Of a stretch of 13,999 nt of DNA, positions 1 to 13,999 are shown in pieces. Origin of the DNA: a virus. Lineage: Duplodnaviria; Heunggongvirae; Uroviricota; Caudoviricetes. Positions within the stretch are counted from its first letter, which is position 1; the number at the start of each line of letters is the position of its first letter. The translations under genes were made by a program, and so were the position numbers. Location: positions 1 through 13,999 of IMG/VR virus record IMGVR_UViG_2700989510_000001, one strand, 5' to 3'. The notes beneath the pieces were generated by a model that worked only from the letters and a program-made list of their open reading frames with translations, was not told the DNA's origin and made no database searches.

Positions 1-156
1 TTACTCCTCAGGTTCGTAAGCTGTGAAGACAGCGACCTCCGTCTGGCCGGTTCGGATTCGTACCTCGCAGAGGTCTTTCCTCGTTACCAGTGCCGTCACA
101 ATGACGGTTAAACAGATGACGATCAGGGCGATTAACATCGCCTTTTGCTGCTTCAT
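1..156 (-). CDS. hok: Hok/Gef family type I toxin, 51 aa
   Basis: Minus-strand translation MKQQKAMLIALIVICLTVIVTALVTRKDLCEVRIRTGQTEVAVFTAYEPEE: one N-terminal TM helix plus the conserved Hok motif (LTRK.LCE..R.G..EVA.F.AYE). AGGAG sits about 9 nt upstream of the ATG at 156; TAA stop at 1-3. The six-frame ORF extends in frame to 213 (70 aa), but the 51-aa form matches Hok family length. Confidence 0.8.
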   Translation of the reverse strand: MKQQKAMLIALIVICLTVIVTALVTRKDLCEVRIRTGQTEVAVFTAYEPEE

Positions 157-402
157 AGCCTGCTTCTCCTTGCCTTTCGGCACGTAAGAGGCTAACCTAC
201 GTTTGTGAAGCATAGATTGGGCCTCAGATTAATGTTAAACGTCTTGCAGGACGCGTAATGTTAACTGGGGCTTTTCTCTATCTGCCTTTTGGTGTTCATG
301 CCTGAGACAGATAGCCTCAAGCACCCGCAGCAATTCTACTTAACTCTCGCTTTACCGCAAACCGTTTTTACCCGATATGGGAATTCCCATATCGTAATGA
401 AT

Positions 403-507
403 TCAGTTCCCTAGTCGATCCATCAAAAACACAACCAGGCAGTAAACGCCCACAACAGCAATAACAGCCAGCGCACCTTCCATTGCCAGTGAAATATCAT
501 CCGACAT
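403..507 (-). CDS. hypothetical small hydrophobic peptide, 34 aa
   Basis: Hand translation of the minus strand gives MSDDISLAMEGALAVIAVVGVYCLVVFLMDRLGN with TGA stop at 403-405. A strong SD (AAAGGAGGGAAT) immediately precedes the ATG at 505-507. Below the 60-aa cutoff of the ORF track. Single predicted TM segment. Confidence 0.35.
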   Translation of the reverse strand: MSDDISLAMEGALAVIAVVGVYCLVVFLMDRLGN

Positions 508-622
508 ATTCCCTCCTTTGGTGTGAATCCCGGCGAACGTTTTTACCCCCACCGACAAATAACATATACTAAAAAATCAATAGCTATAGCAACGCCTGTA
601 ATTGCAAAGGCTTCAGGCCAGA

Positions 623-1336
623 TCATTGGCGCACCTCCTGCGGCGGTTCTGGTAGCGGCATCCAGTCGGTTACATTGCGGCTCTGTGTTTCGAAAAATTC
701 ATCACCATTACGGACTACATCAAAAAACTCACCGTCTCGATATTGCGCATAAAGAACGAATGCGCCATCACATAAAATAATTACGTGCTGACCATCATCC
801 GGCATTCGCTCACTACAGCTTATCCAACCATCCGGAGTTACCGGATAGTTGGTTGACGTTTCCGAGATTTCCCGAAAATTATTGGTTGACGAACCCTTAT
901 TTTCCCGAAAGTTTCCAGCCTGAAGCATGGCGGCGCGGCAGGCGTTCCATATTTCGGCAGCAATATCGCGCTCGCTATCGGTTAATTTGTACGTTGAAAC
1001 ATAGCCAGAGAGCATTTCTACGTTTTCCGGAGTTGCTTCTTCAGGCACTACCGGTGCTGGCTCACGTATTACAGGCTCGCCCATGCGTGATTCTCCCTGC
1101 GCCTCTTTCACCATGTGGTCATTGATTTGCTCCAGTCGCCGAACGTGCTCATCAGCTTCAAGCGCTCGCCGTTTCCAGATGGACAGGTCTTCACGAGCGC
1201 CCTGATATGCGTCACCGTATTCGCCGTTAAATACTGGCGCTGGCGGGGCGATGCGTCCAAGCAACTTATTTACCTCTTTCGCCATCGCGTCATATTTATC
1301 TAAATAGCGATTAGCTTCTAAGCAGACTCGGTGCAT
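623..1336 (-). CDS. prophage protein with C-terminal DUF551-like domain
   Basis: 237-aa ORF. C-terminal region WISCSERMPDDGQHVIILCDGAFVLYAQY...VTDWMPLPEPP resembles the DUF551 signature as I recall it. No convincing SD at the 1336 ATG; an internal ATG (MAKEV, about 1288) is an alternative start. Confidence 0.7.
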   Translation of the reverse strand: MHRVCLEANRYLDKYDAMAKEVNKLLGRIAPPAPVFNGEYGDAYQGAREDLSIWKRRALEADEHVRRLEQINDHMVKEAQGESRMGEPVIREPAPVVPEEATPENVEMLSGYVSTYKLTDSERDIAAEIWNACRAAMLQAGNFRENKGSSTNNFREISETSTNYPVTPDGWISCSERMPDDGQHVIILCDGAFVLYAQYRDGEFFDVVRNGDEFFETQSRNVTDWMPLPEPPQEVRQ

Positions 1337-1536
1337 CTGATCTGAGTTAACTCGTTTAACTGGATCTGCTTCCAGCTATGCCAGTGCAATTTTGAATAAC
1401 TCGCCCTATACCCGTGCCATCCCTGAATTGGGGTAGCATTTCGCAATCGCTATTTTTAATTTGGCTTCTTCGATTAATTTCTCTTTGGTTAATTCAGTCA
1501 CTTTTCATTACCGCCCTTTCGGGCGGCCTCCTGACA

Positions 1537-1749
1537 TTAATCGTTGTGATAACTCATAGCTTCATTTGCAGCATCAACTGGATCAACATCCCACCAGCAA
1601 TAATTTGGGTCGACACCTTCAGGTGTCCACGGCTCTAATTCATTTTTTGCCGCATTCTCGTCGCCAGTAATTTTAAAAATCTGCTCTGAGAACTTTTTCA
1701 CCCACTCGTTATATTTTTCAGCGTTAATAACTTTCTGTGCGTTTGACAT
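1537..1749 (-). CDS. hypothetical prophage protein, 70 aa
   Basis: ORF with ATG at 1747-1749 preceded by GGAGGT at optimal spacing; TAA stop at 1537-1539. Acidic small protein, no recognisable family. Confidence 0.65.
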   Translation of the reverse strand: MSNAQKVINAEKYNEWVKKFSEQIFKITGDENAAKNELEPWTPEGVDPNYCWWDVDPVDAANEAMSYHND

Positions 1750-1797
1750 TGATATACCTCCGGTTAAGGATTAAATTTTTAACAGAGCTAAATTTAA

Positions 1798-2154
1798 TTA
1801 TTCAGTTCTGGATTTTGTCACCCTGCGTATCCGCGCTTTCACGTTACGCTCAATCTGAATTAGCTTTTCTATATTTCTCCGCCTTTCCCGTTCCTCCTGG
1901 CGCAAGATCCTTACATCATCTGCCAGTCTGGTTTCTCTTTTCGCCACAGAGAGCATCCAGTCAAATGGCTCCACAACTGCACCGCAGATTTTACAGCGGA
2001 CCTGACGCTCTTTTTCGTCAACCCGGACAGAGGCGTGATGGCAATATGGTCTTTCCGATGGCTCATAGAGAAAATTAACCTGATTACGTGGGTCATCCTC
2101 TTTTACCGGAAATAAAACGATATTGCTTAACTCATCTTCTGGTTTTATTTCCAT
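1798..2154 (-). CDS. hypothetical protein with putative zinc-ribbon (C-x-H-H ... C-K-I-C)
   Basis: 118-aa ORF. Strong SD (AAAGGAGAGGAGC) directly upstream of the ATG at 2152-2154. Start overlaps the end of the upstream gene by 23 nt. Cys/His cluster PYCHHASVRVDEKERQVRCKICG. Confidence 0.7.
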   Translation of the reverse strand: MEIKPEDELSNIVLFPVKEDDPRNQVNFLYEPSERPYCHHASVRVDEKERQVRCKICGAVVEPFDWMLSVAKRETRLADDVRILRQEERERRRNIEKLIQIERNVKARIRRVTKSRTE

Positions 2155-2851
2155 GCTCCTCTCCTTTGATGCGAATGCCAGCGGCGCGGATTGCAGCGAT
2201 GACTTCAGAAACTTTGTATGCCATTACCGTTTGGTAATCATCGTGAAAATCTGTTCGATGAAGCATGCTGCTACGTTCTGGGAGCGATATTTCCCGTGCT
2301 TCCAGTTCTGCAATGCGCTTCTCTGCGGATTCCAACGCCGCAACCAATTCGTCTACAGTTCCGGCAGCTTGCAGTGCGTAATCGGTAATAGCCATCTCAT
2401 GATCAATTTCAGTACCGTTCTCATTCGTTGAGGTGATAGCAAAATAATCAGAGTCGATTTCGTTATCAGCTAAGTGGCGTAGCGTATCGGCAACAAGCCG
2501 GCCGTTTTCGATTAGCAGCTTCCCTTCCGTAAGCGCAATCTCCTCGTTCTCCTGGTCGCGTGATTTGATGTATTGCTGGTTTCTTTCCCGTTCATCCAGT
2601 AGTGCCAGCGCAACATTTGGATTAAAGGCAGCAATAAATTCAGCGTTTGCGTAAGCCTGAGCATCTGTTTCAACCAGGCAGTTAACATGACATTCTGCAA
2701 TTACGCCACCGGGTTCTCCTTTCCATTTTTGACAAACAAAAACTCCTGTTATATTCCCATGCTGATTGCCCGATGTATGCCCTACGATGTAGCATCCTTT
2801 AGTTGCTTTCTCTGCTGCTTCACGAAGCGCCTCATAGTTAACCTCTCTCAT
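2132..2851 (-). CDS. Ead/Ea22-like prophage protein
   Basis: 239-aa ORF. N-terminus ...YEALREAAEKATKG... resembles lambdoid Ead/Ea22-like early proteins as I recall them. AGGAGGTGG SD upstream of the ATG at 2849-2851. ATGA start/stop overlap with the upstream gene. Confidence 0.75.
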   Translation of the reverse strand: MREVNYEALREAAEKATKGCYIVGHTSGNQHGNITGVFVCQKWKGEPGGVIAECHVNCLVETDAQAYANAEFIAAFNPNVALALLDERERNQQYIKSRDQENEEIALTEGKLLIENGRLVADTLRHLADNEIDSDYFAITSTNENGTEIDHEMAITDYALQAAGTVDELVAALESAEKRIAELEAREISLPERSSMLHRTDFHDDYQTVMAYKVSEVIAAIRAAGIRIKGEEHGNKTRR

Positions 2852-3144
2852 TGAGCCACCTCCTGATAAATCACCGTATGTCCCAGTTTCTCCGCCAGTG
2901 CCAGCTCTGCCTTAGCGCCCGCTGACCGCTGCCAGCCATTCAGCATGTAAATCGCATCCACGCAACGAATCATTGCCATGCAAATATCCATGTAGTGCGG
3001 CTGTGTCAGCCCGTCCGGAAGTACTGCCGGGTTTAAGACTGTATGCCCTTCCCGTTTCAGTTCCTCTTCCGCCTTGTGGAACGCCTCACGGTTGAAATTT
3101 TTATACCCGGTCATCGGACCGGCGATATAAACCCTCACCCTCAC
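2848..3144 (-). CDS. DUF4406-like (nucleoside 2-deoxyribosyltransferase-like fold) protein
   Basis: 98-aa ORF beginning (M)RVRVYIAGPMTGYKNFNREAF, the N-terminal motif I associate with DUF4406. GTG start at 3142-3144 with AGGAGGT 6 nt upstream; GTGA overlap with the upstream stop. Confidence 0.75.
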   Translation of the reverse strand: MRVRVYIAGPMTGYKNFNREAFHKAEEELKREGHTVLNPAVLPDGLTQPHYMDICMAMIRCVDAIYMLNGWQRSAGAKAELALAEKLGHTVIYQEVAQ

Positions 3145-3533
3145 TCCATCACCTCCTGAAAATTACCCCGATAGAACGCCAGCACACGCTGCATAACTTC
3201 GCTCTGGCGGCACTCACGACAAATTATGTTCTGCCGTCTGTTGTAACGACGTATTTCTCCGTCAGGTAACTTTCGAATCAGTGTCGGGTCAGCAGCCTTC
3301 TCCGGTGTCTTACGCCATACGCGATACGCCTGCTCTGATAGAAATACCCCGCAACCAGAGAGCCAGACATCACCACTGGCCGCAAGCGCACCAGATAAAC
3401 GACGAATAGCGGTCTTACTGACACCCGTTTTATCTGCCAGTTGTCGAAAAGTTTCTCGTCCGCTCAGGCGCACGAATTCCACAATGCGCGCCCTCACTTC
3501 TTCCCGCTCTTCTGGTGTAAATACTTTTGCCAT
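3141..3533 (-). CDS. hypothetical protein with probable HTH
   Basis: ORF track gives 3141..3548, but that first codon is TTG. The in-frame ATG at 3531-3533 (MAKVFTPEE...) has GGAGG 5 nt upstream and lies just after the upstream stop (3549-3551). Segment ETFRQLADKTGVSKTAIRRL looks like a helix-turn-helix. Confidence 0.7.
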   Translation of the reverse strand: MAKVFTPEEREEVRARIVEFVRLSGRETFRQLADKTGVSKTAIRRLSGALAASGDVWLSGCGVFLSEQAYRVWRKTPEKAADPTLIRKLPDGEIRRYNRRQNIICRECRQSEVMQRVLAFYRGNFQEVME

Positions 3534-3548
3534 AAGCGCCTCCGGCAA

Positions 3549-4274
3549 TCACTTTTCCGACACAATACGACCGGATGAATCGACAATCTGCCGAACAATA
3601 TCCCGGTGCTTGTTCAGCTCCCGCAGCGCGGCGCAGACACGCTCCCACTTCTGAACCTGACCTTTTGCCCGGCGCAGCTCGCGGTTAGCCACATGCAGCG
3701 ATGGTAAAATCAGACCATCCGGATGTTTTCTGGTGAACAACGGCTGTGACTGCACTGTGACCGCCACACTTTCAGTTTTTATTTCTTCCTGTGTTTCCGC
3801 TTCCCGGACTGGTAACGCAACACCTGTTGGCTGAGGAAAGGCTTTACCATCGGTTTCCACTACGGATGCAGCTTCCGGCTCTGCCGGTAAATCAGCACCC
3901 GGTATGCAGTAACGAAATTTACCGCCCTGATTCACGCGAATCAGACGCCCTTTGCTGATTGCCATGGCCAGCGATGAATTCGCCCGGCGGGAGGTAATCC
4001 CGAACATCAGTGCCAGCTCATCCGCCGTTTGTGGGCCATGTTGTTCAATCGCCTCAGTCAGCATTTTCGCTGTCACTTTCGGTACCGGTGACACCGGTTC
4101 ACTTTCACCAGCCTGAATCAGCCACCACATCGACCCCTTGTTATCCGCTTCACCGCGGCGCTTCAGTTTCCACAGTTCGTTGACCGCATCTTCACGGCTG
4201 ATTCCAAGGCGGGCCGCCACTACCTGTGAAGAGGCTCTTTTCAGTGCTTTCAGTGCGTCAAATACGGTTTCCAT
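3549..4274 (-). CDS. prophage protein with two winged-helix-like segments (DUF1627-like)
   Basis: 241-aa ORF. ATG at 4272-4274 with GGAGGAAA SD. HTH-like segments [25 protein letters not shown] and [29 protein letters not shown]. Confidence 0.75.
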
Positions 4275-4307
4275 TAAAATTTCCTCCGATAAAATCGTTT
4301 CTCAGAT

Positions 4308-4970
4308 TCAAATAAAACCAGCTGCCTTCCGGCGTTCGTATTCCTGTTTCAGCCGTTCAATTGGCGTTGGCCCTTGCGGGTGTTTCGCCCCTTCCAGTTG
4401 TCGTCGCACTGGCGGAACACTCATCCCGTTACCAACATGCTTTGCCCATTTCGTCAGTTGCCGTTCCGCAAGTCGTTTTAACTCACCCTGCGTCATCTGG
4501 CGCTCAATCCCTCTGGTACGCATTTCGAGGCAGATGTGGTACAGCACAGGCTGTGGCCACGGGTATTTATCACTCCCGTCGTATCGCCAGGATTCATTGC
4601 GCCAGCGCCGGTACTCTTCCATCACGGCATCCACCGTAAGACCAAATGGATTTGCCCCACTCTCCGAAATCAGCGCAACAAACTCAGCCAGGTCCGGGGG
4701 CCACGTTTCACCCGCCCGGCAGCGGTCCATGCACTGACGGCAGACCAGACGGATTTGCTGTTCAGTCATCGCACCAATCTGGGCAATCCAGAGCTTCGAA
4801 GGTGCGGCCCCGTTCTTCTGAGTCCAGCGGTTCGAATACACCTCCCCCATAAGCTCCCACAGCTTCCAGGCCGTTTCCGTTGCTGATAAATCCGTTTTCA
4901 CGTTCCCACTGTTCGCGTGCTGCCCGGATTTCCTGAACTGCCCGTGATGCCGTGCCACCTGGTGCTGCAT
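4308..4970 (-). CDS. replication protein P-like (putative DnaB helicase loader)
   Basis: C-terminal half (...YPWPQPVLYHICLEMR...ELKRLAERQL...) parallels lambda P (...YPWKSNAHYWLVTNLY...ELRRKAADEL...) from memory. Start uncertain: the ATG at 4970 (AGGGGG SD) overlaps the upstream gene by 209 nt; an in-frame ATG at 4850 (GGGAG SD) is the alternative. Confidence 0.7.
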   Translation of the reverse strand: MQHQVARHHGQFRKSGQHANSGNVKTDLSATETAWKLWELMGEVYSNRWTQKNGAAPSKLWIAQIGAMTEQQIRLVCRQCMDRCRAGETWPPDLAEFVALISESGANPFGLTVDAVMEEYRRWRNESWRYDGSDKYPWPQPVLYHICLEMRTRGIERQMTQGELKRLAERQLTKWAKHVGNGMSVPPVRRQLEGAKHPQGPTPIERLKQEYERRKAAGFI

Positions 4971-5793
4971 GGCTTACCCCCTTGCTGACTGGTTTTACCT
5001 GTGCCCTGACGTGCTGCACGTGGCGGGCAAATTTCTGCTCCCACTGAACCTGCGTGAAAACCTTCCCTTCCGCCATCCAGTAATCCCGGAATGCGGCAAG
5101 CTCAGCAGGTGTAAATTCCGGCTCAGGCAGAGCCATACCCCACACTGCTGCCCGTTGTCGAAAATCCGGCGACGGCTGCCAGACAGTAGTCATCGAAAAT
5201 TTCCCGATCGGTTCGCTCAGGCCGTCCAGGTATTCAGGTTCGGCTGTCTGCAACGGCGCACCATTCGACTCACTGGTCGGAATACTCTCGCGCGCGTTAT
5301 GTGTGGGGTTTAATTCTGTATCTGTATCTTTATCTGTCGTGACTTGTCGTGACAGATGCGTGACACGTCGTGACTCATCGTGACAATCAGCATTATGTTT
5401 CCGCAGCTTTTCCCGCTCCCGCTGCGCTCTCTTGCGCTCTGCCGGGGATTTTGCCGTTTGCGAAACGTTACCATTGTCCTCTTTCAGCACCTGACGTTTT
5501 TCCCATCCGGAAATAAGGTCACCATCCAGAACCCGCCCCTGCATTGCATGCAAAATTGAATCAATTACGTCTTCCGTCACATCAAGCGCACTTGCTAAAT
5601 CTTCCGTCGTGACATCAATGTGACCACGTAGTGACACGCCGTGACATGTCGTGACATTTCGTGACGCGCTCACCAGAAGATGGATATACACTGCCATCAC
5701 TGTTGCGATTGGCTGTCCTGATACCCTGGCAATCGTTCGCCACTTGGGGTCATTTGGCATGTCATGCCACAATCTGAGCCAGGCATTAGCCAT
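4762..5793 (-). CDS. replication initiation protein (O-like role) with DnaT-like C-terminal domain
   Basis: Segment GKFSMTTVWQPSPDFRQRAAVWGMALPEPEFTPAELAAFRDYWMAEGKVFTQVQWEQKFARHVQ closely parallels the C-terminal domain of E. coli primosomal protein DnaT as I recall it. The ORF track starts at a GTG (5799); the ATG at 5791-5793 has AGAGGTGA SD. The gene contains two iteron arrays. Confidence 0.8.
   Translation of the reverse strand: MANAWLRLWHDMPNDPKWRTIARVSGQPIATVMAVYIHLLVSASRNVTTCHGVSLRGHIDVTTEDLASALDVTEDVIDSILHAMQGRVLDGDLISGWEKRQVLKEDNGNVSQTAKSPAERKRAQREREKLRKHNADCHDESRRVTHLSRQVTTDKDTDTELNPTHNARESIPTSESNGAPLQTAEPEYLDGLSEPIGKFSMTTVWQPSPDFRQRAAVWGMALPEPEFTPAELAAFRDYWMAEGKVFTQVQWEQKFARHVQHVRAQVKPVSKGVSHAAPGGTASRAVQEIRAAREQWERENGFISNGNGLEAVGAYGGGVFEPLDSEERGRTFEALDCPDWCDD
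5312..5386. repeat. iteron array 1 (putative phage origin element): TATCTGT repeats followed by 5 x (T/G)CGTGAC at about 10-bp spacing
   Basis: TCGTGAC at 5337, 5347, (GCGTGAC 5358), 5368, 5378, i.e. one per helical turn, all in the same orientation, preceded by tctgtatctgtatctttatctg. Lies inside the initiator gene. Confidence 0.6.
5605..5667. repeat. iteron array 2 (putative phage origin element): 6 x GTGAC(A) at 10-11 bp spacing
   Basis: GTGAC at 5609, 5620, 5631, 5641, 5651, 5661 with 10-11 bp periodicity, same orientation as array 1, about 270 bp away and inside the same gene. Confidence 0.6.
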
Positions 5794-5861
5794 ACTCACC
5801 TCTTCTGATACCGAACTTTACCCACGAACTTCCGAAAGAAATCCGGTATAAATATTGTTGG

Positions 5862-6287
5862 TCAATGCACAACAACTGCATTACCAGGCTGACCACCACT
5901 GTTAGTCAGGGTGCCCCAGGCGATCGCTACAGCGATAAAATCATCCACATCTTTCACCAGCCGATCCCGTCGTTCGACGATCTCCCGGTAATATTCAGAA
6001 CTGTGACTGCGCATACGGGCCACCAGCAAAGGCGGCATCGCCTTTTCGATCGCCGGTAACAGCGCCTGAATTTTTTCAACCGCATCAGGCGTATCCTTCT
6101 CCACCCAGCGGAAAATTTTCTGGGTATTACGGGCCAGGGCTTCCGGATGGCTGTCGTCGTACAGTTCCGGGAACGTCATCCCAAGTTCGAAATAAGTCCG
6201 GGCTATTTCAGCTGCAGGCACTTTCTCACCATCAGGATATGCCCAGGCATTCATCGCCATGCGGATGTGTTCATGTTTGATTTTCAT
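5862..6287 (-). CDS. CII-position protein, YdaT-like
   Basis: 141-aa ORF starting MKIKHEHI, which I recall as the N-terminus of Rac YdaT-family proteins. ATG at 6285-6287 overlaps the upstream stop (ATGA). Sits between the cro-like gene and the replication initiator, the lambda cII position. Confidence 0.65.
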   Translation of the reverse strand: MKIKHEHIRMAMNAWAYPDGEKVPAAEIARTYFELGMTFPELYDDSHPEALARNTQKIFRWVEKDTPDAVEKIQALLPAIEKAMPPLLVARMRSHSSEYYREIVERRDRLVKDVDDFIAVAIAWGTLTNSGGQPGNAVVVH

Positions 6288-6511
6288 GAATCATTTTTCC
6301 TTTCGTTCGAGGTGTTATCCTTCTTTTTGTAAAGTTCTGGGTTCAACGATAATTTTCCCTTGGAGTATGCAACTGCTTCAGCAGCCCTCCCCTTGGGAAC
6401 TATTTCGCCGGGACGCTTACGCCACATGTATATAGCTTCTCGGGTTACCCCATAAAAATCAGCGACTCTTTGGACAGAACCAAAAAACTGGACAAGTTCA
6501 TCAACTCGCAT
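6284..6511 (-). CDS. Cro-like HTH regulator (YdaS-like)
   Basis: 75-aa ORF with HTH segment VQRVADFYGVTREAIYMWRKR. GGGGGTG SD upstream of the ATG at 6509-6511. Divergent from the cI-like repressor across a 98-bp operator region. Confidence 0.75.
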   Translation of the reverse strand: MRVDELVQFFGSVQRVADFYGVTREAIYMWRKRPGEIVPKGRAAEAVAYSKGKLSLNPELYKKKDNTSNERKNDS

Positions 6512-6609
6512 TTCACCCCCTTAAAACTAAGTATTTTTAGATTAAAGGGTAATTTTTTTTAGGTCAATACAATCTAAAATAATTTATATTCAATTCGCGG
6601 GAGAAAATA
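6512..6609. promoter_or_regulatory. divergent immunity promoter/operator region (pR-like leftward, pRM-like rightward)
   Basis: 98-bp AT-rich intergenic region between divergent cro-like and cI-like genes. Inverted repeat ATTTTTAGATT (6533-6543) / AATCTAAAAT (6571-6580). Leftward candidate promoter TTGACC-17-TAATCT (minus strand; GGTCAA at 6562-6567 on plus). Rightward candidate -10 TATATT at 6585-6590. SD GGGAG before the cI ATG. Confidence 0.5.
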
Positions 6610-7254
6610 ATGGAAAGCCTTGGCATTAGGCTTAAGAAACTCAGAAAAGACAAAGGTCTGACCCAAGTTGAACTTGGCAAGCTTTCTGGCGTAACTGGGG
6701 TAACAATAGGATACTGGGAGAAAGATCTAAACGAACCAGGTAGCAAAGCTCTTAGTAAATTAGCCCTAGCACTAGGCACTACTGAGTCCTATCTCCTGTA
6801 TGGAGTATCATCTCCTGAATCATCCCTTGTGCAGAAAAATCCAGGTACCCAAATCCCATACCTTTCTTGGGGAGAAGCGATTTCTTTCCTAATATTAAAA
6901 GGAGAGAAAACTATGGGAACTGTCGACAGGATCACCACATTCTTTGATGTCAAGGAGGGAGATTTTGCCGTTTCAATGCCTGATGATACTATGCACAATC
7001 CATCAGGGTCCCCAAGCATTCCAGTTGGAGCCACAGTGATCATGAGGCCTGGCGAAAAATATAAAAATGGTAGCATCGTCGCAGTAATAGTCCCAGATCC
7101 ACTCACAAACGAACCATCCATGACTATAAAAAAATTAGTTATTGATGGAAAGCTCGTGTACTTAGCCCCCCTTAACCCACGCTATCAATCATCCTTACTT
7201 ACACCGGAATGTAACATCGTTGCTGTAGCAAAAGGTGTTCAGTTCAGCCTCTAG
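6610..7254 (+). CDS. cI: cI-like prophage repressor: N-terminal HTH_XRE + C-terminal S24 (LexA-like) peptidase domain
   Basis: 214-aa ORF. HTH LTQVELGKLSGVTGVTIGYWE. C-terminal block TIKKLVIDGKLVYLAPLNPRYQ parallels lambda cI [21 protein letters not shown] (catalytic Lys region). Ser-Met in AVSMPDD is the candidate nucleophile. Confidence 0.9.
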   Translation: MESLGIRLKKLRKDKGLTQVELGKLSGVTGVTIGYWEKDLNEPGSKALSKLALALGTTESYLLYGVSSPESSLVQKNPGTQIPYLSWGEAISFLILKGEKTMGTVDRITTFFDVKEGDFAVSMPDDTMHNPSGSPSIPVGATVIMRPGEKYKNGSIVAVIVPDPLTNEPSMTIKKLVIDGKLVYLAPLNPRYQSSLLTPECNIVAVAKGVQFSL

Positions 7255-7278
7255 CTCCCGCTTTGCCCTGTAATCAGA

Positions 7279-7303
7279 GGTCGGCTTTGTCGGCCTTTTA
7301 TCT
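7279..7303 (+). terminator. possible intrinsic terminator after cI
   Basis: GGTCGGC-TTT-GTCGGCC can pair as RNA only with two G-U wobbles, followed by TTTTATCTT. Weak. Confidence 0.3.
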
Positions 7304-7323
7304 TAAAAATATTTACATTCAAC

Positions 7324-7352
7324 TTGACGGCAAAACTAAATATTCTTATATT
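7324..7352 (+). promoter_or_regulatory. candidate sigma70 promoter for the downstream moron
   Basis: TTGACG (7324-7329), 17-nt spacer, TATATT (7347-7352): near-consensus -35/-10 with optimal spacing, between the cI stop and the next rightward genes. Confidence 0.5.
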
Positions 7353-7528
7353 CATTGCAACCCACCCCGCTTCACAGAATGCAGGGCAATACTTCGAGTT
7401 ACCAGGCAGTGGTCAGGGGTTAAGTAGCCAGCCCGAGGCGTAAGAACATGACGGCAGGGTTCAACTTTAATAACTATGCAGCAGGTTTTTGTTCCGCTAC
7501 CCCGGCGTTAAGGGGAAATGAGGTCAGC

Positions 7529-7681
7529 ATGGATACTATCGATCTTGGCAACAACGAATCTCTGGTATGTGGCGTGTTTCCCAATCAGGACGGCACGTTT
7601 ACCGCGATGACGTATACCAGAAGCAAAACGTTTAAAACTGAAGCTGGCGCGCGTCGCTGGTTAGCCAGAAACACTGACTGA
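7529..7681 (+). CDS. small hypothetical protein (50 aa; 77 aa if started at 7448)
   Basis: ORF track gives 7448..7681. The ATG at 7529 has GAGG 5 nt upstream; the 7448 ATG has a poorer SD. Sequence ...GVFPNQDGTFTAMTYTRSKTFKTEAGARRWLARNTD. Stop TGA overlaps the downstream ORF. Confidence 0.5.
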   Translation: MDTIDLGNNESLVCGVFPNQDGTFTAMTYTRSKTFKTEAGARRWLARNTD

Positions 7682-7692
7682 TGAGGTTGACG

Positions 7693-8331
7693 ATGGAATT
7701 TAAAGATTTACCTCCTTCAATCCAGGAGATTGCAGCACACACACTTCGTCATCGTCTGAACGAACTTGAATTGGAATCGGTAACGAAAAAAGACACTGAT
7801 AATATGGCTCGTAATGTGCGCGATGCGTTTACCGGATTGTATTTCTGTGCGTCTATAAATAAACACGACTCAGAGAGTGTGGCAAATAAAATTGCAGAAA
7901 CGACAGCGCAAAACATCAATACGAAACCAACGGAAGAAGAAATTGATCAGTTTGCTCATGATGCTGGTTTAAAAAACAAGAAAGAAAAATCGCCATATGC
8001 GGGGAACATGTTTGTTTATGACAATCTCATCAGAATTCGTGGCGAAATTCCGGCGGAATACCTGGCAAGAGTCCATCAGGCATTGCTTAAAAATTTGGAA
8101 ACAGAATTATTTGATGGCAACACTAACGGTTTCTTCATGGTATCAGGCCTTGAGAAAGACTGGGATGCAGAAAAACGCTGGAATGTTGCTACATGGTTAT
8201 TCAGTAACAGAGCCGCTGCACTGGAAGCTTCGGCATGTATTTGCGGCCTGTTCTTAACAGACCACAAATATAATCTGGATGTGTACAGTTATATTTACGC
8301 TGAACACGGTCCACTCTGGATTGACTGGTAA
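7693..8331 (+). CDS. hypothetical protein, 212 aa, AT-rich moron gene in the rexAB-equivalent position
   Basis: ORF track starts at 7681 (ATG overlapping the upstream TGA); the ATG at 7693 has GAGG 6 nt upstream. AT-rich relative to flanks. No TM segment and no recognisable family. Co-oriented with and downstream of cI. Confidence 0.75.
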   Translation: MEFKDLPPSIQEIAAHTLRHRLNELELESVTKKDTDNMARNVRDAFTGLYFCASINKHDSESVANKIAETTAQNINTKPTEEEIDQFAHDAGLKNKKEKSPYAGNMFVYDNLIRIRGEIPAEYLARVHQALLKNLETELFDGNTNGFFMVSGLEKDWDAEKRWNVATWLFSNRAAALEASACICGLFLTDHKYNLDVYSYIYAEHGPLWIDW

Positions 8332-8541
8332 TTATAAGGAAACACCAGCAGGGCCGCGGCGACCAACAGAACGATTAAAATCAATAATGCCATTATAAAG
8401 GACATTATTTAATTTATCGTCGAATGCTGATTCTGTGAGCCTCAACTCTGAATGAGTTTTTAATAACCCTGATTGCCTGAGTTGATTTACCAGGCATTCA
8501 ATCTGTTTTTCAATAAGCGGATTTCTTTTTTTGTTTGGCAT
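8332..8541 (-). CDS. hypothetical small protein, 69 aa
   Basis: ORF track gives 8332..8553; the second ATG (8539-8541, MPNKKRNPLIEKQ...) is preceded by GGAGGATAAA. Its stop codon directly abuts the stop of the convergent 212-aa gene (TAATTA at 8329-8334). Confidence 0.5.
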   Translation of the reverse strand: MPNKKRNPLIEKQIECLVNQLRQSGLLKTHSELRLTESAFDDKLNNVLYNGIIDFNRSVGRRGPAGVSL

Positions 8542-8940
8542 TTTATCCTCCATTGAGGTTCTGGGTTAAAAATGGAGACCAACACGCTGTCACGTGTGGT
8601 CGTGCGCCGGACACGGATAAGAATCCGGTACTGACAGTTTACTGAAAGGATATTTCCCTGAAAAGTCAGGGCATAACGCGAAAGCGTACGGCGAAGCTCT
8701 TTCCCTTAGAAGGCTTGTCGTTAGATTTCTTCGAACGTGCGCTTCCGGTTGTGGCAATCCGCGAAATGGCGCGGCGGTAAGTATGGCGGGGTTATTCCTT
8801 CCCCATTGAGGACACCGGGTTGTCAGGTTGACCATACGCTTAAGTGACAACCCCGCTGCAACGCCCTCTGTTATCAATTTTCTGGTGACGTTTGGCGGTA
8901 TCAGTTTTACTCCGTGGCTGCTCTGCCGCCCTTTTTAAAG

Positions 8941-9088
8941 TGAATTTTGTGATGCGGTGAATGCGGCTCAGCGCACGCGGAACAGTTAAAACCAAAAACA
9001 GTGTTATGGGTGGATTCTCTGTATCCGGCGTTAATTGTTAACTGGTTAACGTCACCTGGAGGCACCAGGCACCGCATCACAAAATTCA
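8941..9088. repeat. perfect 19-bp inverted repeat pair flanking a 110-bp segment
   Basis: Left arm TGAATTTTGTGATGCGGTG (8941-8959); right arm CACCGCATCACAAAATTCA (9070-9088), its exact reverse complement. The match does not extend on either side. The right arm ends 17 nt before the ATG at 9106. Confidence 0.6.
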
Positions 9089-9105
9089 TTGTTGAGGACG
9101 CGATA

Positions 9106-9294
9106 ATGGAAACGTTATTACCAAACGTTAATACGTCTGAAGGTTGTTTTGATATTGGTGTTCTGCTCAGTAACCGGGAGTTTACTGAAGATGCCATTAA
9201 TATGAGGAAATATGAGCCTTATCTGCTCAATGATAATTCCATACTTTCCCGAATTGCTCTTCTTGAACTTGGTATTTTCGGAGAACGTCAATGA
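9106..9294 (+). CDS. small hypothetical protein, 62 aa (kil position of early-left operon)
   Basis: ATG at 9106 with GAGGA SD (ORF track frame begins at 9001). Stop overlaps the next ATG (ATGA at 9291-9294). First gene after the ORF-poor region and upstream of the exonuclease. Confidence 0.5.
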   Translation: METLLPNVNTSEGCFDIGVLLSNREFTEDAINMRKYEPYLLNDNSILSRIALLELGIFGERQ

Positions 9295-9461
9295 CTTCAG
9301 CATTTGCACTGATGATGACGGTTTTTCTTATAACGGGTGAATCACAGAATGTGATTACCGGAATTTATGCCAGTAAAGAATCCTGCCTCCAGGCAAGAGA
9401 CGAGCAAAAAATTTCTGGTGAATGCCTCCCGGTAAAAAAAAGTATCGCTGTACCTGAATAA
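9291..9461 (+). CDS. small hypothetical protein, 56 aa, hydrophobic N-terminus
   Basis: Hand translation MTSAFALMMTVFLITGESQNVITGIYASKESCLQARDEQKISGECLPVKKSIAVPE, TAA at 9459-9461. Translationally coupled (ATGA) to the upstream ORF. Below the ORF-track size cutoff. Confidence 0.5.
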   Translation: MTSAFALMMTVFLITGESQNVITGIYASKESCLQARDEQKISGECLPVKKSIAVPE

Positions 9462-9572
9462 CGAAACACCGGCTGGATAACCCTCCAGCCATATTAACAC
9501 CATACCAACGGATTAAAAATGCCAGCAATGGCAGGGATTTGTTCACCCTTAAATCTGTAATGAGGTTTATCA

Positions 9573-12032
9573 ATGAGCACTGATAAAGAAGAATTTGCGC
9601 TATATTGCGAAGCAAAAAATGACAAAGTCAGAAAACGTCTGGGAATTAAAGGTGGTTTTTACTGGACTACAGCAAAAAAATTATCTGTTGCCATCTCCCG
9701 CTGCATTACCGCAATGGATGACAACGATTATGATGAAGACGACTTTAAAAAACCCGTTCGCGTCCATTTACCCGTTGTGAATGACCTTCCACCTGAAGGC
9801 GTGTTTGATACCGAATTCTGCAACCGATACGAAAAAGGCGGGGAAGATGGCATTACAATGGTATTTATCGCGCCCTCTCCCTCCGTGCAGGAGAAACCAG
9901 CCAGTACTGACAATACCAACGTCAACGGCGAAGACATGACGGAGATTGAGGAGAATATGCTCCTGCCGGTTTCTGGTCAGGAGCTGCCCATTCGCTGGCT
10001 TGCGCAACACGGCAGCGAAAAACCAGTAACGCACGTTGCACGGGAAGAACTTCAGGCATTACATATAGCACGGGCGGAAGAACTGCCGGCTGTTACTGCC
10101 CTGGCCATTTCCCACAACACAAAGCTGCTCGACCCGCTGGAGATTCGCGACCTTCATAAACTGGCACGCGACACTGACAAAGTTTTCCCTAATCCCGGTA
10201 ATTCAGACCTGGGACTGATAACTGCTTTTTTCGAGGCATACCTGGACGCTGACTACACTGATCGGGGTCTGCTGACAAAAGAGTGGATGAAAGGAAATCG
10301 TGTTTCGCGTATCACCCGTACGGCTTCCGGTGCAAATGCCGGTGGCGGGAACAAAACCGATCGCAATCCGAATTTAGTACACACCTTCGATACGCTGGAT
10401 GTGGAGATTGCAGCAGCCACACTTCCGATGGATTTTAATATTTATGAAATTCCGGGCAGCGTTTATCGTCGCGCAAAAGAAATCGTCCTGAAAAGAGAAA
10501 GTCCGTTCAAAGAATGGTCCGCAGCACTTCGCGCAACCCCGGGTATTCTGGACTATTCCCGCGCCGCTATTTTTGCACTTATCCGGAGCGCTCACCCTGA
10601 GTTTTATCACTACCCGGGACGCCTTCAGGGGTATATCAACGCCTACTTAACGGAGACTGATCACGAGAACCCCAGCAAGGAAACTCTCACTGCTGCACGA
10701 CATACACCGGAAAAAGATATCCTGGAAGAAGTTAACCGCGAACTGGCTGCTAAGCAGGAAACAGAAGAAGAAAATGATGAAGAAAAACCGCAACCATCTT
10801 GCGCAATGGCAGATGAACAGGCAACGGCTGAAACAGTGGAACCGGATGCAACTGAACATCATCAGGACACGCAGCCGCTGGATGCTCAGTCACAGGTAAA
10901 TTCTGTTGATGCGAAATATCAGAAACTGCGGGCAGAACTCCATGAAGCCCGGAAAAACATTCCGCCCCAAAATCCTGTCGATGCAGACAAATTACTGGCT
11001 GCCTCTCGCGGAGAATTTGTTGAAGGGATTAGCGACCCGAATGATCCGAAATGGATTAAGGGGATCCAGACCCGCGATTCTGTGTACCAGAATCAGCCAG
11101 AAACGGAACAGAACGACCAGAAAGCGGAACAGAACAGCCCAAATACGCAACAAAACGAGCCAGAAACGAAACAACCTGAACCAGTAGTGCAACAGGAACC
11201 GGAAAAGATCTGCACCACCTGCGGTCAGACCGGCGGCGGCAACTGCCCTGATTGTGGCGCGGTGATGGGCGACGCAACATACCAGGAAACATTCGATGAC
11301 AAGAACCTGGTTGAAGTTCAGGAAGACGATTCGGAGAAAATGGAAGGCGCTGAACATCCACACAAGGAGAATGCTGGCAGCGCTCAGGACCACGCCAGCG
11401 ATAGTGAAACTGGCGAGACGGCAGATCCCTTAATTACGGTGAACGGTCATCACGTTATCACATCCACCAGCAGGACGTGTGACCATCTAATGATCGACCT
11501 TGAAACCATGGGAAAAAATCCTGATGCCCCGATTATCTCAATAGGTGCAATATTTTTCGATCCGCAAACCGGAGATATGGGACCGGAATTTAGTAAGACT
11601 ATCGATCTGGAAACTGCTGGCGGAGTCATTGATCGGGACACCATTAAATGGTGGCTTAAGCAATCACGCGAAGCGCAATCTGCCATTATGACCGATGAAA
11701 TCCCGTTAGATGATGCACTGTTACAATTGCGGGAATTTATCGACGAAAACTCCGGTGAATTCTTTGTTCAGGTCTGGGGAAATGGAGCCAACTTCGACAA
11801 CACGATTTTGCGCCGTTCATACGAACGGCAGGGGATCCCCTGCCCGTGGCGTTACTACAACGATCGCGATGTGCGCACAATCGTTGAGCTGGGGAAAGCC
11901 ATAGACTTCGATGCCAGAACGGCTATTCCATTCGAAGGTGAGCGCCATAATGCACTTGATGACGCCCGTTACCAGGCAAAATACGTTTCAGTTATCTGGC
12001 AAAAACTGATCCCGAGTCAGGCTGATTCTTAA
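9573..12032 (+). CDS. prophage exonuclease: RecE-like N-terminal region + zinc ribbon + C-terminal DnaQ-like DEDDh 3'-5' exonuclease domain
   Basis: 819-aa ORF with GAGGT SD. N-terminal blocks ([70 protein letters not shown]) match what I recall of the RecE (exodeoxyribonuclease VIII) N-terminal region. [16 protein letters not shown] is a zinc-ribbon-like motif. C-terminus carries DEDDh motifs: MIDLETMG (D-x-E), [12 protein letters not shown] (D), HNALDDARY (H-x3-D). Confidence 0.9.
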
Positions 12033-12042
12033 TGTTCAACTG

Positions 12043-12074
12043 TCGCCGGTTGTGACTGGTATTCTGCAACCGGC
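12043..12074 (+). other. 9-bp-stem hairpin between exonuclease and excisionase genes
   Basis: CGCCGGTTG (12043-12051) / CAACCGGCG (12066-12074), perfect 9-bp inverted repeat with 14-nt loop; no downstream U-tract. Confidence 0.3.
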
Positions 12075-12104
12075 GCTCGTCTGATGTAAGAGATAAAGAA
12101 AGCG

Positions 12105-12356
12105 ATGAGCGAAGTAATCATGATTGTCTCTCCCGGCAAATGGGTATCCGAAGAGCAGTTAATTGCGCTGAAAGGAATAAAAAAAGGTACGTTAAAAAAG
12201 GCCCGGGAAAAATCGTTTATGGAAGGAAGGGAATATAAGCATGTCGCTCATGACGGTATGCCATGGGATAACAGTCCATGCTTTTACAACCTGGAAGAAA
12301 TTGATCGCTGGATTGAGCGCCAGGCATCTGCAAGACCAAGACGTCATCTTGCTTGA
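12105..12356 (+). CDS. xis: excisionase-like protein
   Basis: 83-aa ORF immediately upstream of the integrase on the same strand. Contains a GREY motif reminiscent of lambda Xis (DGREY). Start could also be the ATG at 12120. Confidence 0.65.
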   Translation: MSEVIMIVSPGKWVSEEQLIALKGIKKGTLKKAREKSFMEGREYKHVAHDGMPWDNSPCFYNLEEIDRWIERQASARPRRHLA

Positions 12357-12390
12357 CTAAAAGCAACACGAACCAATGAGAGAAGCTGAA

Positions 12391-13671
12391 ATGAAATATC
12401 CGACAGGCGTGGAAAACCATGGAGGGAAATTACGTATCTGGTTTGTTTATAAAGGTGTAAGAGTCCGGGAAAATCTTGGGGTTCCTGACACAGCAAAAAA
12501 CAGGCGCATTGCAGGTGAGCTACGCGCCTCTGTTTGTTACGCAATAAAAACTGGCGCTTTCGACTATGCAAAACAGTTTCCCGCCTCACACAATCTGGAA
12601 AAATTTGGTGAGGCCCGACAAGATTTAACCATAAAAGAACTGGCTGAAAAATTTCTGGCACTGAAAGAAACTGAAGTCGCAAAAACGTCACTCAACACGT
12701 ACCGTGCCGTCATCAAAAATATTCTGAGCATAATCGGTGAAAAAAATCTTGCATCATCGATTAATAAAGAAAAATTGCTGGCGGTACGTAAAGAGTTACT
12801 GACTGGATACCAGATCCCCAAAAGTAACTATATTGTTACACAACCAGGGAGATCGGCTGTTACCGTAAATAATTACATGACAAATCTTTACGCCGTGTTC
12901 CAGTTTGGTGTTGATAACGGTTATCTGGCAGACAATCCATTTAAGGGGATCTCACCATTAAAGGGGTCGAGAACCATCCCGGATCCACTTTCGCGGGAGG
13001 AGTTTATCCGCCTTATTGACGCGTGCAGAAATCAGCAAGCCAAAAATTTATGGTGTGTTTCCGTTTATACTGGGATTCGCCCTGGTGAACTCTGTGCGCT
13101 TGGATGGGAAGATATAGATCTGAAAAATGGAACAATGATAATCAGAAGAAATCTGGCAAAAGACCGTTTTACAGTACCAAAAACACAGGCGGGAACCAAT
13201 CGTGTGATTCACCTTATTAAGCCCGCAATCGACGCTCTCCGGAGTCAGATGGCACTAACGAGACTGAGCAAAGAGCATATCATCGATGTTCACCTCAGAG
13301 AATTCGGCAGAACAGAGAAACAAAAATGTACCTTTGTTTTTCAACCTGAAGTGTCAGCGAAAGTAAAAAATTATGGTGACCATTTTACCGTTGACTCAAT
13401 AAGGCAGATGTGGGACGCAGCGGTAAAGCGTGCCGGAATCCGCCATCGCAAATCGTATCAGTCGAGACACACTTATGCCTGCTGGTCGTTAACAGCAGGA
13501 GCTAACCCGGCATTCATTGCAAACCAGATGGGCCATGCAGATGCGCAAATGGTGTTTCAGGTGTACGGGAAATGGATGTCAGAAAATAATAATGCGCAGG
13601 TAACGCTGTTAAATACACAGTTAAGCGAGTTTGCCCCAACCATGCCCCATAACGAAGCGATGAAAAGTTAA
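12391..13671 (+). CDS. int: tyrosine site-specific integrase (lambdoid/Rac-type)
   Basis: ORF track starts at 12376; the ATG at 12391 (MKYPTGVENHGGKLRIWF...) has a GAGAAG SD-like element and matches the N-terminus I recall for Rac-type integrases. C-terminal catalytic box ...RHTYACWSLTAGANPAFIANQMGHADAQMVFQVYGKW (R, H-x-x-R, H, Y). Confidence 0.9.
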   Translation: MKYPTGVENHGGKLRIWFVYKGVRVRENLGVPDTAKNRRIAGELRASVCYAIKTGAFDYAKQFPASHNLEKFGEARQDLTIKELAEKFLALKETEVAKTSLNTYRAVIKNILSIIGEKNLASSINKEKLLAVRKELLTGYQIPKSNYIVTQPGRSAVTVNNYMTNLYAVFQFGVDNGYLADNPFKGISPLKGSRTIPDPLSREEFIRLIDACRNQQAKNLWCVSVYTGIRPGELCALGWEDIDLKNGTMIIRRNLAKDRFTVPKTQAGTNRVIHLIKPAIDALRSQMALTRLSKEHIIDVHLREFGRTEKQKCTFVFQPEVSAKVKNYGDHFTVDSIRQMWDAAVKRAGIRHRKSYQSRHTYACWSLTAGANPAFIANQMGHADAQMVFQVYGKWMSENNNAQVTLLNTQLSEFAPTMPHNEAMKS

Positions 13672-13814
13672 TTTTTTATTTATCAATTAGTTAGATTGAA
13701 TGACTCTTGAAATCCATAAATTCAAGCGCAGTGCCCAGCCATCCCGATACTGCTGCTTTCACCAAATCCTTAGTGCTTCTTTCATGTTTTTCTATTGTCA
13801 TAATGGTTATCTCT

Positions 13815-13882
13815 AAAAAAGAGGTAAGAAGCGTACTACTTACTCGCCGTTATTGGTATTATTCAGAAAAAGGTAAGCGTAC
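13815..13882. repeat. direct repeats AAAAAGGTAAG(AA)GCGTAC downstream of int; candidate integrase arm-type sites in the att region
   Basis: aaaaaagaGGTAAGaaGCGTAC (13815-13836) and agaaaaaGGTAAGCGTAC (13865-13882), about 50 bp apart, then a short palindrome GTCTGGTCAGAATCTGAC (13893-13910). Function inferred from position only. Confidence 0.35.
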
Positions 13883-13999
13883 AGCCTGAACCGTCTGGTC
13901 AGAATCTGACGAATTAGACAAAGTGGTGTCCACCAAATAAGTAGTGGGAACCAAAGTGTCAGATATGCAGAAAAATGTGACTCCCGGCAGGCGAAAAGG

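Follow-up and report, generated by a model that had tools for sequence, protein, structure and literature searches.

The closest described systems to the gene pair considered here are the replication genes O and P of phage lambda, the 'dnaT' and 'replication protein P' genes of phiV10 and O157 typing phage 10, and E. coli DnaT (primosomal protein I). Lambda P is divided into domain I (residues 1-29, the N-terminal lasso), domain II (~30-119), domain III (120-192) and domain IV (193-233) (PMC12661323), and a longer form of the lambda initiator, O', which continues across the 5' part of P, is described as a minor product of UGA read-through in the passage of PMC3640518 that cites Yates et al. 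(1977). The subject of this report is a related pair, an O-like replication initiator gene and a P-like helicase loader gene, in a 13,999-nucleotide (nt) stretch of DNA from a virus of the Caudoviricetes (IMG/VR virus record IMGVR_UViG_2700989510_000001, positions 1 to 13,999), the whole of which is referred to as the window. Conservation and structural modelling give good reason to believe that the loader starts at ATG 4970, well inside the initiator gene, and that the two genes share a conserved overlap of 209 nt which codes in both frames. The features concerned are the following (aa, amino acids).

4762..5793, minus strand: coding sequence of the O-like replication initiator, 343 aa (open reading frame and translation, PHROG replication-initiation families, RefSeq WP_033810287.1)
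4308..4970, minus strand: coding sequence of the P-like helicase loader, long form, 220 aa; best-supported start ATG 4970-4968
4977..4983, minus strand: Shine-Dalgarno (SD) sequence of the P-like gene (AAGGGGG), within the O linker codons K-G-V; duplex energy -11.8 kcal/mol
4872..4970, minus strand: overlap part A; in the O frame a linker and the conserved helix SRAVQEIRAAREQWER (O 282-299); pattern of O-frame constraint
4762..4871, minus strand: overlap part B; P codons 34-70 (AWKLWELMGEVYSNRWTQKNGAAPSKLWIAQIG), predicted first three helices of domain II; pattern of P-frame constraint
4848..4850, minus strand: in-frame ATG of M41, a nearly invariant Met with a moderate SD; possible secondary start
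4767..4769, minus strand: in-frame ATG of M68, the start used by RefSeq and the Prokaryotic Genome Annotation Pipeline (PGAP) for a 153-aa product; unsupported

The initiator begins at ATG 5793 (5799 for the listed GTG), ends with the stop TGA 4764-4762 and consists of an N-terminal 'replisome organizer' DNA-binding part, a DnaT-like single-stranded DNA (ssDNA)-binding domain and a tail of 78 aa. Over positions 4762-4970 the loader is read in the +1 frame relative to O. An earlier note on this DNA had given an overlap of 209 nt for a start at 4970 and of about 90 nt for one at 4850; the open reading frame coordinates agree with the former and put the latter at 89 nt, and they also reveal a third in-frame ATG which that note overlooked, at 4769 (ATGACTGA), from which the overlap would be 8 nt. 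The module is 100% identical to a stretch of the E. coli O111:H8 chromosome, where PGAP names the two products 'DnaT-like ssDNA-binding domain-containing protein' and 'replication protein P', the latter from ATG 4769 (153 aa). When the module was searched against 5426 complete E. coli genomes, 2184 matched in some part and 658 carried at least 80% of it.

The arrangement is retained well beyond E. coli. In a set of 38 loci fetched through the P protein, with one genome per species and with Escherichia, Citrobacter, Enterobacter, Klebsiella, Salmonella, Pectobacterium, Serratia, Rouxiella, Erwinia and Limnobaculum represented, 30 have an O stop 149-224 nt (mostly 209-215 nt) past the first P-frame ATG, and P is always in the +1 phase. 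Junctions of 17 nt or less were found in this set only with lambda-like P genes (L041-L044). Two Vibrio phage loci have overlaps of 212 and 194 nt, again in the +1 phase and with a similar initiator tail. Since the overlap is kept in the same phase across genera, a frameshift or sequencing artefact is excluded as its source, which disposes of the sequencing error that the earlier note had entertained.

Annotated loaders among the relatives are of at least four kinds, of about 220, 180, 153 and 140 aa, and annotators thus differ on the start. When the long forms are aligned, P residues 34-67 (AWKLWELMGEVYSNRWTQKNGAAPSKLWIAQIG) are among the best conserved of the protein, with W38, W49, K52, N53, G54, P57 and W61 invariant, residues 1-33 are variable, and M68 is often Leu. 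P residues 1-67 contain SGQHANSGNVK and LWELMGEVYSNR. A GGAGG-type SD lies 5-8 nt 5' of the ATG equivalent to 4970 in nearly all loci, and in four loci there is no ATG, GTG or TTG other than this one ahead of the conserved Trp motif. The mean energy of the duplex formed with the 16S 3' end is -9.5 kcal/mol at the 4970-equivalent ATG, -5.5 at M41 and -2.5 at M68, to be read against a background of -2.5 kcal/mol with a 5th percentile of -6.6. At the M68 column 9 of 29 loci have no start codon at all (Leu, Phe or Cys instead). In tblastn searches P residues 17-220 align to the P protein of the phiV10 type, encoded by a gene that shares only 4 nt with the DnaT-like gene next to it, and the orphan P genes of Erwinia retain the conserved N-terminal residues, that of L038 beginning 9 residues before the Trp motif. 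The fold of the mRNA around the P start (4925-5035) was no more or less stable than that of shuffled sequences (z = -0.19), and RNA structure was accordingly rejected as a device for the coupled expression that the earlier note had suggested as a possibility.

The N-terminal residues at issue also belong to a predicted fold. The claim that the downstream gene resembles lambda P is borne out by the Pfam family PF06992 (58.3 bits against a cut-off of 26; residues 58-187 on profile positions 31-161 of 162), by PHROG 109, 'P-like helicase loader' (E 7.7e-63, residues 11-220), and by a structure model from AlphaFold2 (AF2; 58-sequence alignment, mean predicted local distance difference test score, pLDDT, of 72.5), for which a Foldseek search of the PDB returned as top matches the lambda P chains of 9oa1, a DnaB-P complex (E 7e-5 over 199-215 columns; template modelling score 0.41-0.48, lowered by flexible domains). 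In the model residues 1-27 are disordered, helices 27-45, 47-53, 59-66, 70-85 and 94-103 are predicted at pLDDT ~85, and a second helical domain (helices 113-180) and a terminal helix (203-216) make up the remainder, which reproduces the four-part architecture of lambda P: N-terminal lasso, domain II, domain III and C-terminal lasso helix. By profile and fold, then, the protein is classed as a helicase loader of the lambda P family, and DnaB loading is its predicted activity. In sequence-profile alignment P 70-189 corresponds to lambda P 82-202, and the overlap therefore encodes the counterpart of lambda P domain I and the first part of domain II. A start at 4769 would remove three of the five helices of the predicted domain II, and deletion of the corresponding region of lambda P, residues 9-86, abolishes both replication and P toxicity (PMC3640518). 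The earlier note had posed a real overlap and a start farther downstream as alternatives. The conservation of residues 34-67, the retention of the SD and ATG, the loss of the 4769 codon in 9 of 29 loci and the predicted fold favour the real, long overlap, and the homologues in the alignment do not consistently start downstream of 4762.

Selection on the two frames was examined over the same DNA. By the Nei-Gojobori method the ratio of the proportions of nonsynonymous and synonymous differences (pN/pS) is 0.41 over P 34-69 versus 0.39-0.41 in the rest of P, and in the eight closer pairs it is 0.08 versus 0.07-0.09. Synonymous differences over all loci are saturated (pS ~0.75), which left eight moderately diverged pairs usable and was the reason for adding analyses of diversity by codon phase, of simulated sequences and of single-nucleotide polymorphisms (SNPs). 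Read in the O frame, the DNA of P 34-69 has a pS of 0.27 versus 0.74 (in the close pairs 0.044 versus 0.37) with pN/pS above 1, a collapse which is the signature of a dominant second frame. Diversity by phase is O-like over the first ~100 nt of the overlap (O1/O2/O3 = 0.47/0.38/0.59) and P-like over the last ~109 nt (P1/P2/P3 = 0.33/0.26/0.50). SNPs among 46 haplotypes of close relatives from IMG/VR, counted by phase as P1/O2, P2/O3 and P3/O1, number [1, 8, 5] in the first part, [1, 2, 11] in the last part and [12, 9, 61] where P stands alone. The pattern indicates that constraint passes from the O frame in the first ~100 nt to the P frame in the last ~109 nt.

Whether the O frame within the second part is more than a consequence of the P protein was assessed by simulation, with the P protein held fixed and synonymous codons redrawn from the genes' own usage. 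Per locus, no more than 0.5-12% of trials left the simulated O frame open as far as the real one, the loci being related to one another, and the median simulated overlap was 14-119 nt. The last 36 residues of O are more acidic than in the simulation in all 29 loci, diversity at the third position of P is 0.50 in the overlap versus 0.62 elsewhere (p = 0.0045), and the O frame contains stops in the orphan L038, where the initiator is gone. These results indicate that the O frame is kept open and acidic beyond what the sequence of the P protein requires.

Several observations weigh against the reading of a 4970 start in a dual-coding overlap. RefSeq annotates the 153-aa form. Given the O protein, P codons 1-33 are open in 12-97% of randomisations, and their openness was dropped as an argument; residues 2-33 of P, at 26% identity, carry no amino-acid constraint and show the O-phase pattern of diversity, and the exact start therefore rests on the conservation of the SD and ATG. 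M41, almost invariant and preceded by a moderate SD, could serve as an additional, internal start. When Trp and Met columns are left out, the third-position drop in P becomes marginal (p = 0.04), which leaves the final stretch of the O tail under weak sequence-specific selection; much of the conservation of the late O tail appears to be a by-product of P. The phylogenetic relatedness of the loci means, further, that their separate probabilities are not simply to be multiplied. Two other starts must be considered in this light. It is very unlikely that the loader begins at ATG 4769, coupled to the O stop through ATGACTGA, with the openness of the P frame upstream incidental. This is the PGAP call in the identical genome, the same start with its 8-nt overlap is annotated in phage Rac-SA53, ATGA-type junctions are the norm (the 4-nt overlap of lambda O/P being an example), and the profile comparison with PDB lambda P aligns only from residue 70; yet the SD energy at M68 is that of the background and nearly a third of the loci lack the codon, the 34 residues upstream are conserved like the rest of P and have the codon periodicity of the P frame, a confidently predicted domain would lose three of its five helices, and the orphan P genes begin upstream of the conserved Trp motif. 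A start at ATG 4850 (M41, 180 aa), whether exclusive or giving a second isoform without the N-terminal segment, is unlikely, if less so. The unconstrained residues 1-33, the near-invariance of M41, an SD provided by the W38-E39 codons and the use of this start in many NCBI annotations (~180 aa) and in PHROG 33198 speak for it. It has to contend with the conservation of A34, W35 and W38 upstream, with a helix, 27-45, that spans M41, with a CTG at the M41 column in one locus, with the far stronger conserved SD and ATG at the 4970 position, and with the orphan gene of L038, which begins ahead of M41.

Two further explanations were weighed. That it serves a programmed +1 frameshift, or is itself a sequencing frameshift, yielding an O-P fusion, is extremely improbable. 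O-P fusions are on record (PHROG 15931, of 482 positions, and proteins P0172 and P0197) and there is a run of five G at 4845-4849, but the fusions fall in one- or two-member clusters with different junctions, one of them explained by the loss of 1 nt from that G5 run and the other by a deletion between GTGGGA repeats. The conserved SD and ATG argue for independent initiation, and the two frames are arranged in the same way in different genera and in a complete genome. A programmed frameshift was accordingly rejected, the fusion ORFs (open reading frames) being rare indel or deletion variants with unlike junctions. It is also unlikely that, with both frames translated, the last ~36 residues of the initiator are a passenger without function, carried along by virtue of their disorder, and that only the loader matters there. 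Such a passenger would fit the collapse of pS with pN/pS above 1 in the O frame, the low pLDDT and the marginal constraint at P third positions once Trp and Met columns are removed. It fits less well with an O stop held at the same place in ~30 lineages, where random closure would come at a median of 14-119 nt, with an acidity above expectation in every one of the 29 loci, with the preference of K52 and Q51 for G-ending codons (Glu-Glu in O) though pooled usage prefers AAA over AAG, and with the appearance of stops in the frame once O has been lost.

The initiator tail is a conserved element of the module in the preferred reading, that of a loader initiated at 4970 within a stretch coding in both frames. 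Its motif is S.AVQQIRAAREQWER ... G..GG.L.EPLD.EERG.T..LD..D..DD, and in the window the O frame of part B ends as a Gly-rich, acidic, low-confidence tail in LDCPDWCDD. The motif also occurs in loci where the initiator lacks a DnaT-like domain; therefore the tail and P travel together. In the AF2 model of O the linker that bears the SD and ATG of P has pLDDT below 50, helix 282-299 about 60 and the remaining tail low values, and the tail thus resembles a helix that leads into a flexible, Gly-rich and acidic end. A protein-database search with the 79-aa tail alone returned just short E. coli fragments and no architectural information.

Upstream of the tail the initiator combines a constant domain with exchangeable ones, and its gene contains repeats; these features are listed below.

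5002..5211, minus strand: DnaT-like ssDNA-binding domain, O residues 195-264 (Pfam, NCBIfam and PDB matches, structure model)
5293..5310, minus strand: conserved NPTHNA junction between varied N-terminal domains and the constant part made up of DnaT-like domain, tail and P (alignment)
5606..5656, minus strand: first group of putative iterons within O, (T)GTCAC(G) five times, spaced 10-11 nt apart; candidate origin
5336..5385, minus strand: second group of putative iterons within O, (T)GTCAC(G) again five times and spaced 10-11 nt apart

The likeness to DnaT that the earlier note had placed at the C-terminus is real, if not at the extreme C-terminus, since it is followed by the 78-aa tail, the part of O that overlaps P. 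PF17948 matches O residues 199-265 with 62.6 bits (cut-off 25), the PDB DnaT chains 6AEP and 4OU6 match O with E values of 1e-20 to 2e-19, and the AF2 model (pLDDT 85-92 in the domain) superposes on 4OU6, which is DnaT 84-153 with ssDNA, at a root-mean-square deviation of 0.8 A and 58% identity. The DnaT equivalog NCBIfam NF002770 scores 94.4 bits, below its cut-off of 201, with model positions 82-156 of 179 matched, and O is best regarded as a carrier of the DnaT ssDNA-binding domain rather than a full DnaT equivalog, the N-terminal domain of DnaT having no counterpart. A Pfam search of O gave no family but DnaT at E <= 0.01, and so no match to the lambda O family; the PHROG matches are to other 'replication initiation protein', 'primosomal protein' and DnaD-like families.

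Megablast matches to the module divide at the NPTHNA junction (query 2-536 versus 518/539-1601), and the N-terminal domains ahead of it are of at least four unrelated types: replisome organizer, DUF1376, DUF1376 with a T5orf172 insert, and another helix-turn-helix domain. The junction has the appearance of a hot spot for recombination. The two GTCAC(G) clusters lie ~270 nt apart and are coding, giving rise to repeated 'VT/SR/CH' motifs in the O protein; a search with the pattern GTCACGNC found 6 sites where 1.3 were expected, every one within O. The clusters constitute a candidate origin with iterons, as the lambda iterons lie within O.

The probable explanation of these observations is a lambda-type O/P module in which both genes are dual-coding over ~209 nt. 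The 220-aa loader would initiate at ATG 4970 from its own SD within the linker codons of the initiator, and the initiator would be read one base out of phase through the 5' region of the loader to end at 4762, which would add to it, after the DnaT-like domain, a short conserved helix and a flexible Gly-rich acidic tail. The first ~100 nt would be shaped mainly by the initiator helix, leaving the N-terminus of the loader free to vary there, and the last ~109 nt mainly by the first folded helices of the loader, with the initiator tail held open and acidic through synonymous sites of the loader. By inference, the initiator would also bind the GTCAC(G) iterons in its own gene, the loader would bring host DnaB to it, and the tail and loader would form a co-inherited specificity unit swapped among origin-binding N-terminal domains. 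A further step, which is improbable, is that the ~200 bases encode both of two mutually recognising surfaces, the helix and acidic tail of the initiator and the N-terminal segment and first domain of the loader. If this were true, the overlap would weld the initiator-loader interface against recombination while the origin-binding N-terminal domain is exchanged freely at NPTHNA. It is a possibility, too, that the loader is made in two isoforms, a longer one from ATG 4970 that includes the N-terminal lasso and a shorter one from ATG 4850 that lacks it; of the five loader copies on DnaB in lambda, only one has its lasso ordered and bound.

A number of observations on related loci may be recorded here. 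Two Erwinia orphan P genes (L031 2426-3052 and L038 2474-3043) lie beside host genes (TtcA-like, phosphotransferase system transporter) with no initiator upstream; P is intact in both, the old initiator-tail frame is recognisable, and in L038 it is broken by several stops. They are either prophage remnants or domesticated loaders. In Leclercia adecarboxylata (L037 2476-2690) the P frame enters the initiator-tail frame after ~44 codons (MQEF...WQVMGGNILEPVDAEEWGRTFGALDSPDRFDD*), and this copy is probably frameshifted and dead. The rare fusion ORFs (P0172, P0197, P0106 and P0032), which account for PHROG 15931, also include DUF1376-DnaT-P and DUF1627-P fusions. In the Vibrio phages D62 and 199E37-1 (L003, L004) the GenBank start of P is 122 nt past the initiator stop in one and at the M41 equivalent in the other, and the P frame homologous to the query reaches ~200 nt into the initiator gene in both; a truncation of this kind likely affects more than 100 Vibrio phage records. 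The Actinobacillus phage vB_Apl-pPE4 (PP818812.1) has a copy of the module with 87% of its nucleotides identical to those of the E. coli prophage, and as its recorded host is Actinobacillus pleuropneumoniae, it may be worth checking whether the host is correctly assigned or the isolate pure. Within the window, the DUF1627 gene 3' of P (3549-4274, minus strand) measures 726 nt from its first ATG and 771 nt as annotated in the O111:H8 record (L001 7577-8347), a difference in an otherwise identical record that comes from the choice of start codon or from an indel.

The pairing of a DnaT-like domain with P, which had been singled out in the earlier note as a hybrid module, is real and at the same time ordinary: it is widespread and already named by PGAP and the PHROGs. 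What is new is the junction, which bears the marks of conserved, ancient dual coding with a hand-off between frames, and the systematic truncation of the loader in reference annotation that it brings to light; a non-exhaustive literature search found no prior description of this O/P overlap. Related modules are found in numerous prophages of Enterobacterales and in Vibrio phages, and the RefSeq form lacks the N-terminal segment and half a folded domain, so that correction of the start matters for structural and functional work and for prophage annotation. The locus offers, moreover, a clean and apparently ancient case of two cooperating replication proteins that share DNA in two frames, with constraint handed over midway. 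The acidic tail of the initiator and the N-terminus of the loader are both directly testable through single-base changes that are silent in one frame: on the minus strand, T to C at 4969 converts Met1 of P to Thr and is silent in O, and G to T at 4833 converts Glu321 of O to a stop and is silent in P.

The parallels with lambda are extensive. In both systems a P-family loader directly follows the initiator gene (PF06992, 9oa1 fold), within which lie the iterons of lambda and the candidate iterons here, and in both the N-terminal, origin-binding part is a module of its own and the C-terminal part goes together with P. There are differences too: the lambda genes share 4 nt and their P is in the +2 frame, against 209 nt and the +1 frame here, the initiator has a DnaT-like domain and no Pfam match to the lambda O family, and similarity of sequence to lambda P is detectable only from residue 70. 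Lambda O' is an analogue of the initiator tail. The lambda O frame (L045 1087-1275) has stops at codons 36 and 63, giving 34 codons past the UGA, or 61 with a second read-through, in agreement with the older O' report, and the extension is basic and rich in Arg, Ser and Thr, whereas the tail described here is in a different phase, constitutive (no stop intervenes), 69 codons long, acidic and conserved across genera. Homology between the two was rejected, as the phase differs and the lambda extension is basic.

The 'dnaT' and 'replication protein P' genes of phiV10 and O157 typing phage 10 form the same pair, and the N-terminal region of their P aligns with residues 17-67; unlike the present genes they overlap by 4 nt, and the initiator ends ~25 residues after its DnaT-like domain, without helix or acidic tail. 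This comparison suggests that the state without overlap is ancestral. The P frame would then be the older in the second half of the overlap, because the phiV10 initiator is short and overlaps by 4 nt while its P N-terminus still aligns with 17-67, and the initiator would have been extended over a pre-existing 5' region of the loader. With E. coli DnaT the likeness is that of one domain, O 195-264 being ~58% identical to DnaT 84-153 and superposable at 0.8 A, and the difference is one of context, the domain being embedded here in a phage origin-binding protein with nothing that corresponds to the N-terminal domain of DnaT. With viral overprinting pairs, finally, the module shares the translation of two frames from one stretch, an alternation of constraint along it and a presumed younger frame that is disordered and biased in composition; it differs from them in that the overlap joins the ends of two consecutive, cooperating replication genes and contains no embedded accessory gene.

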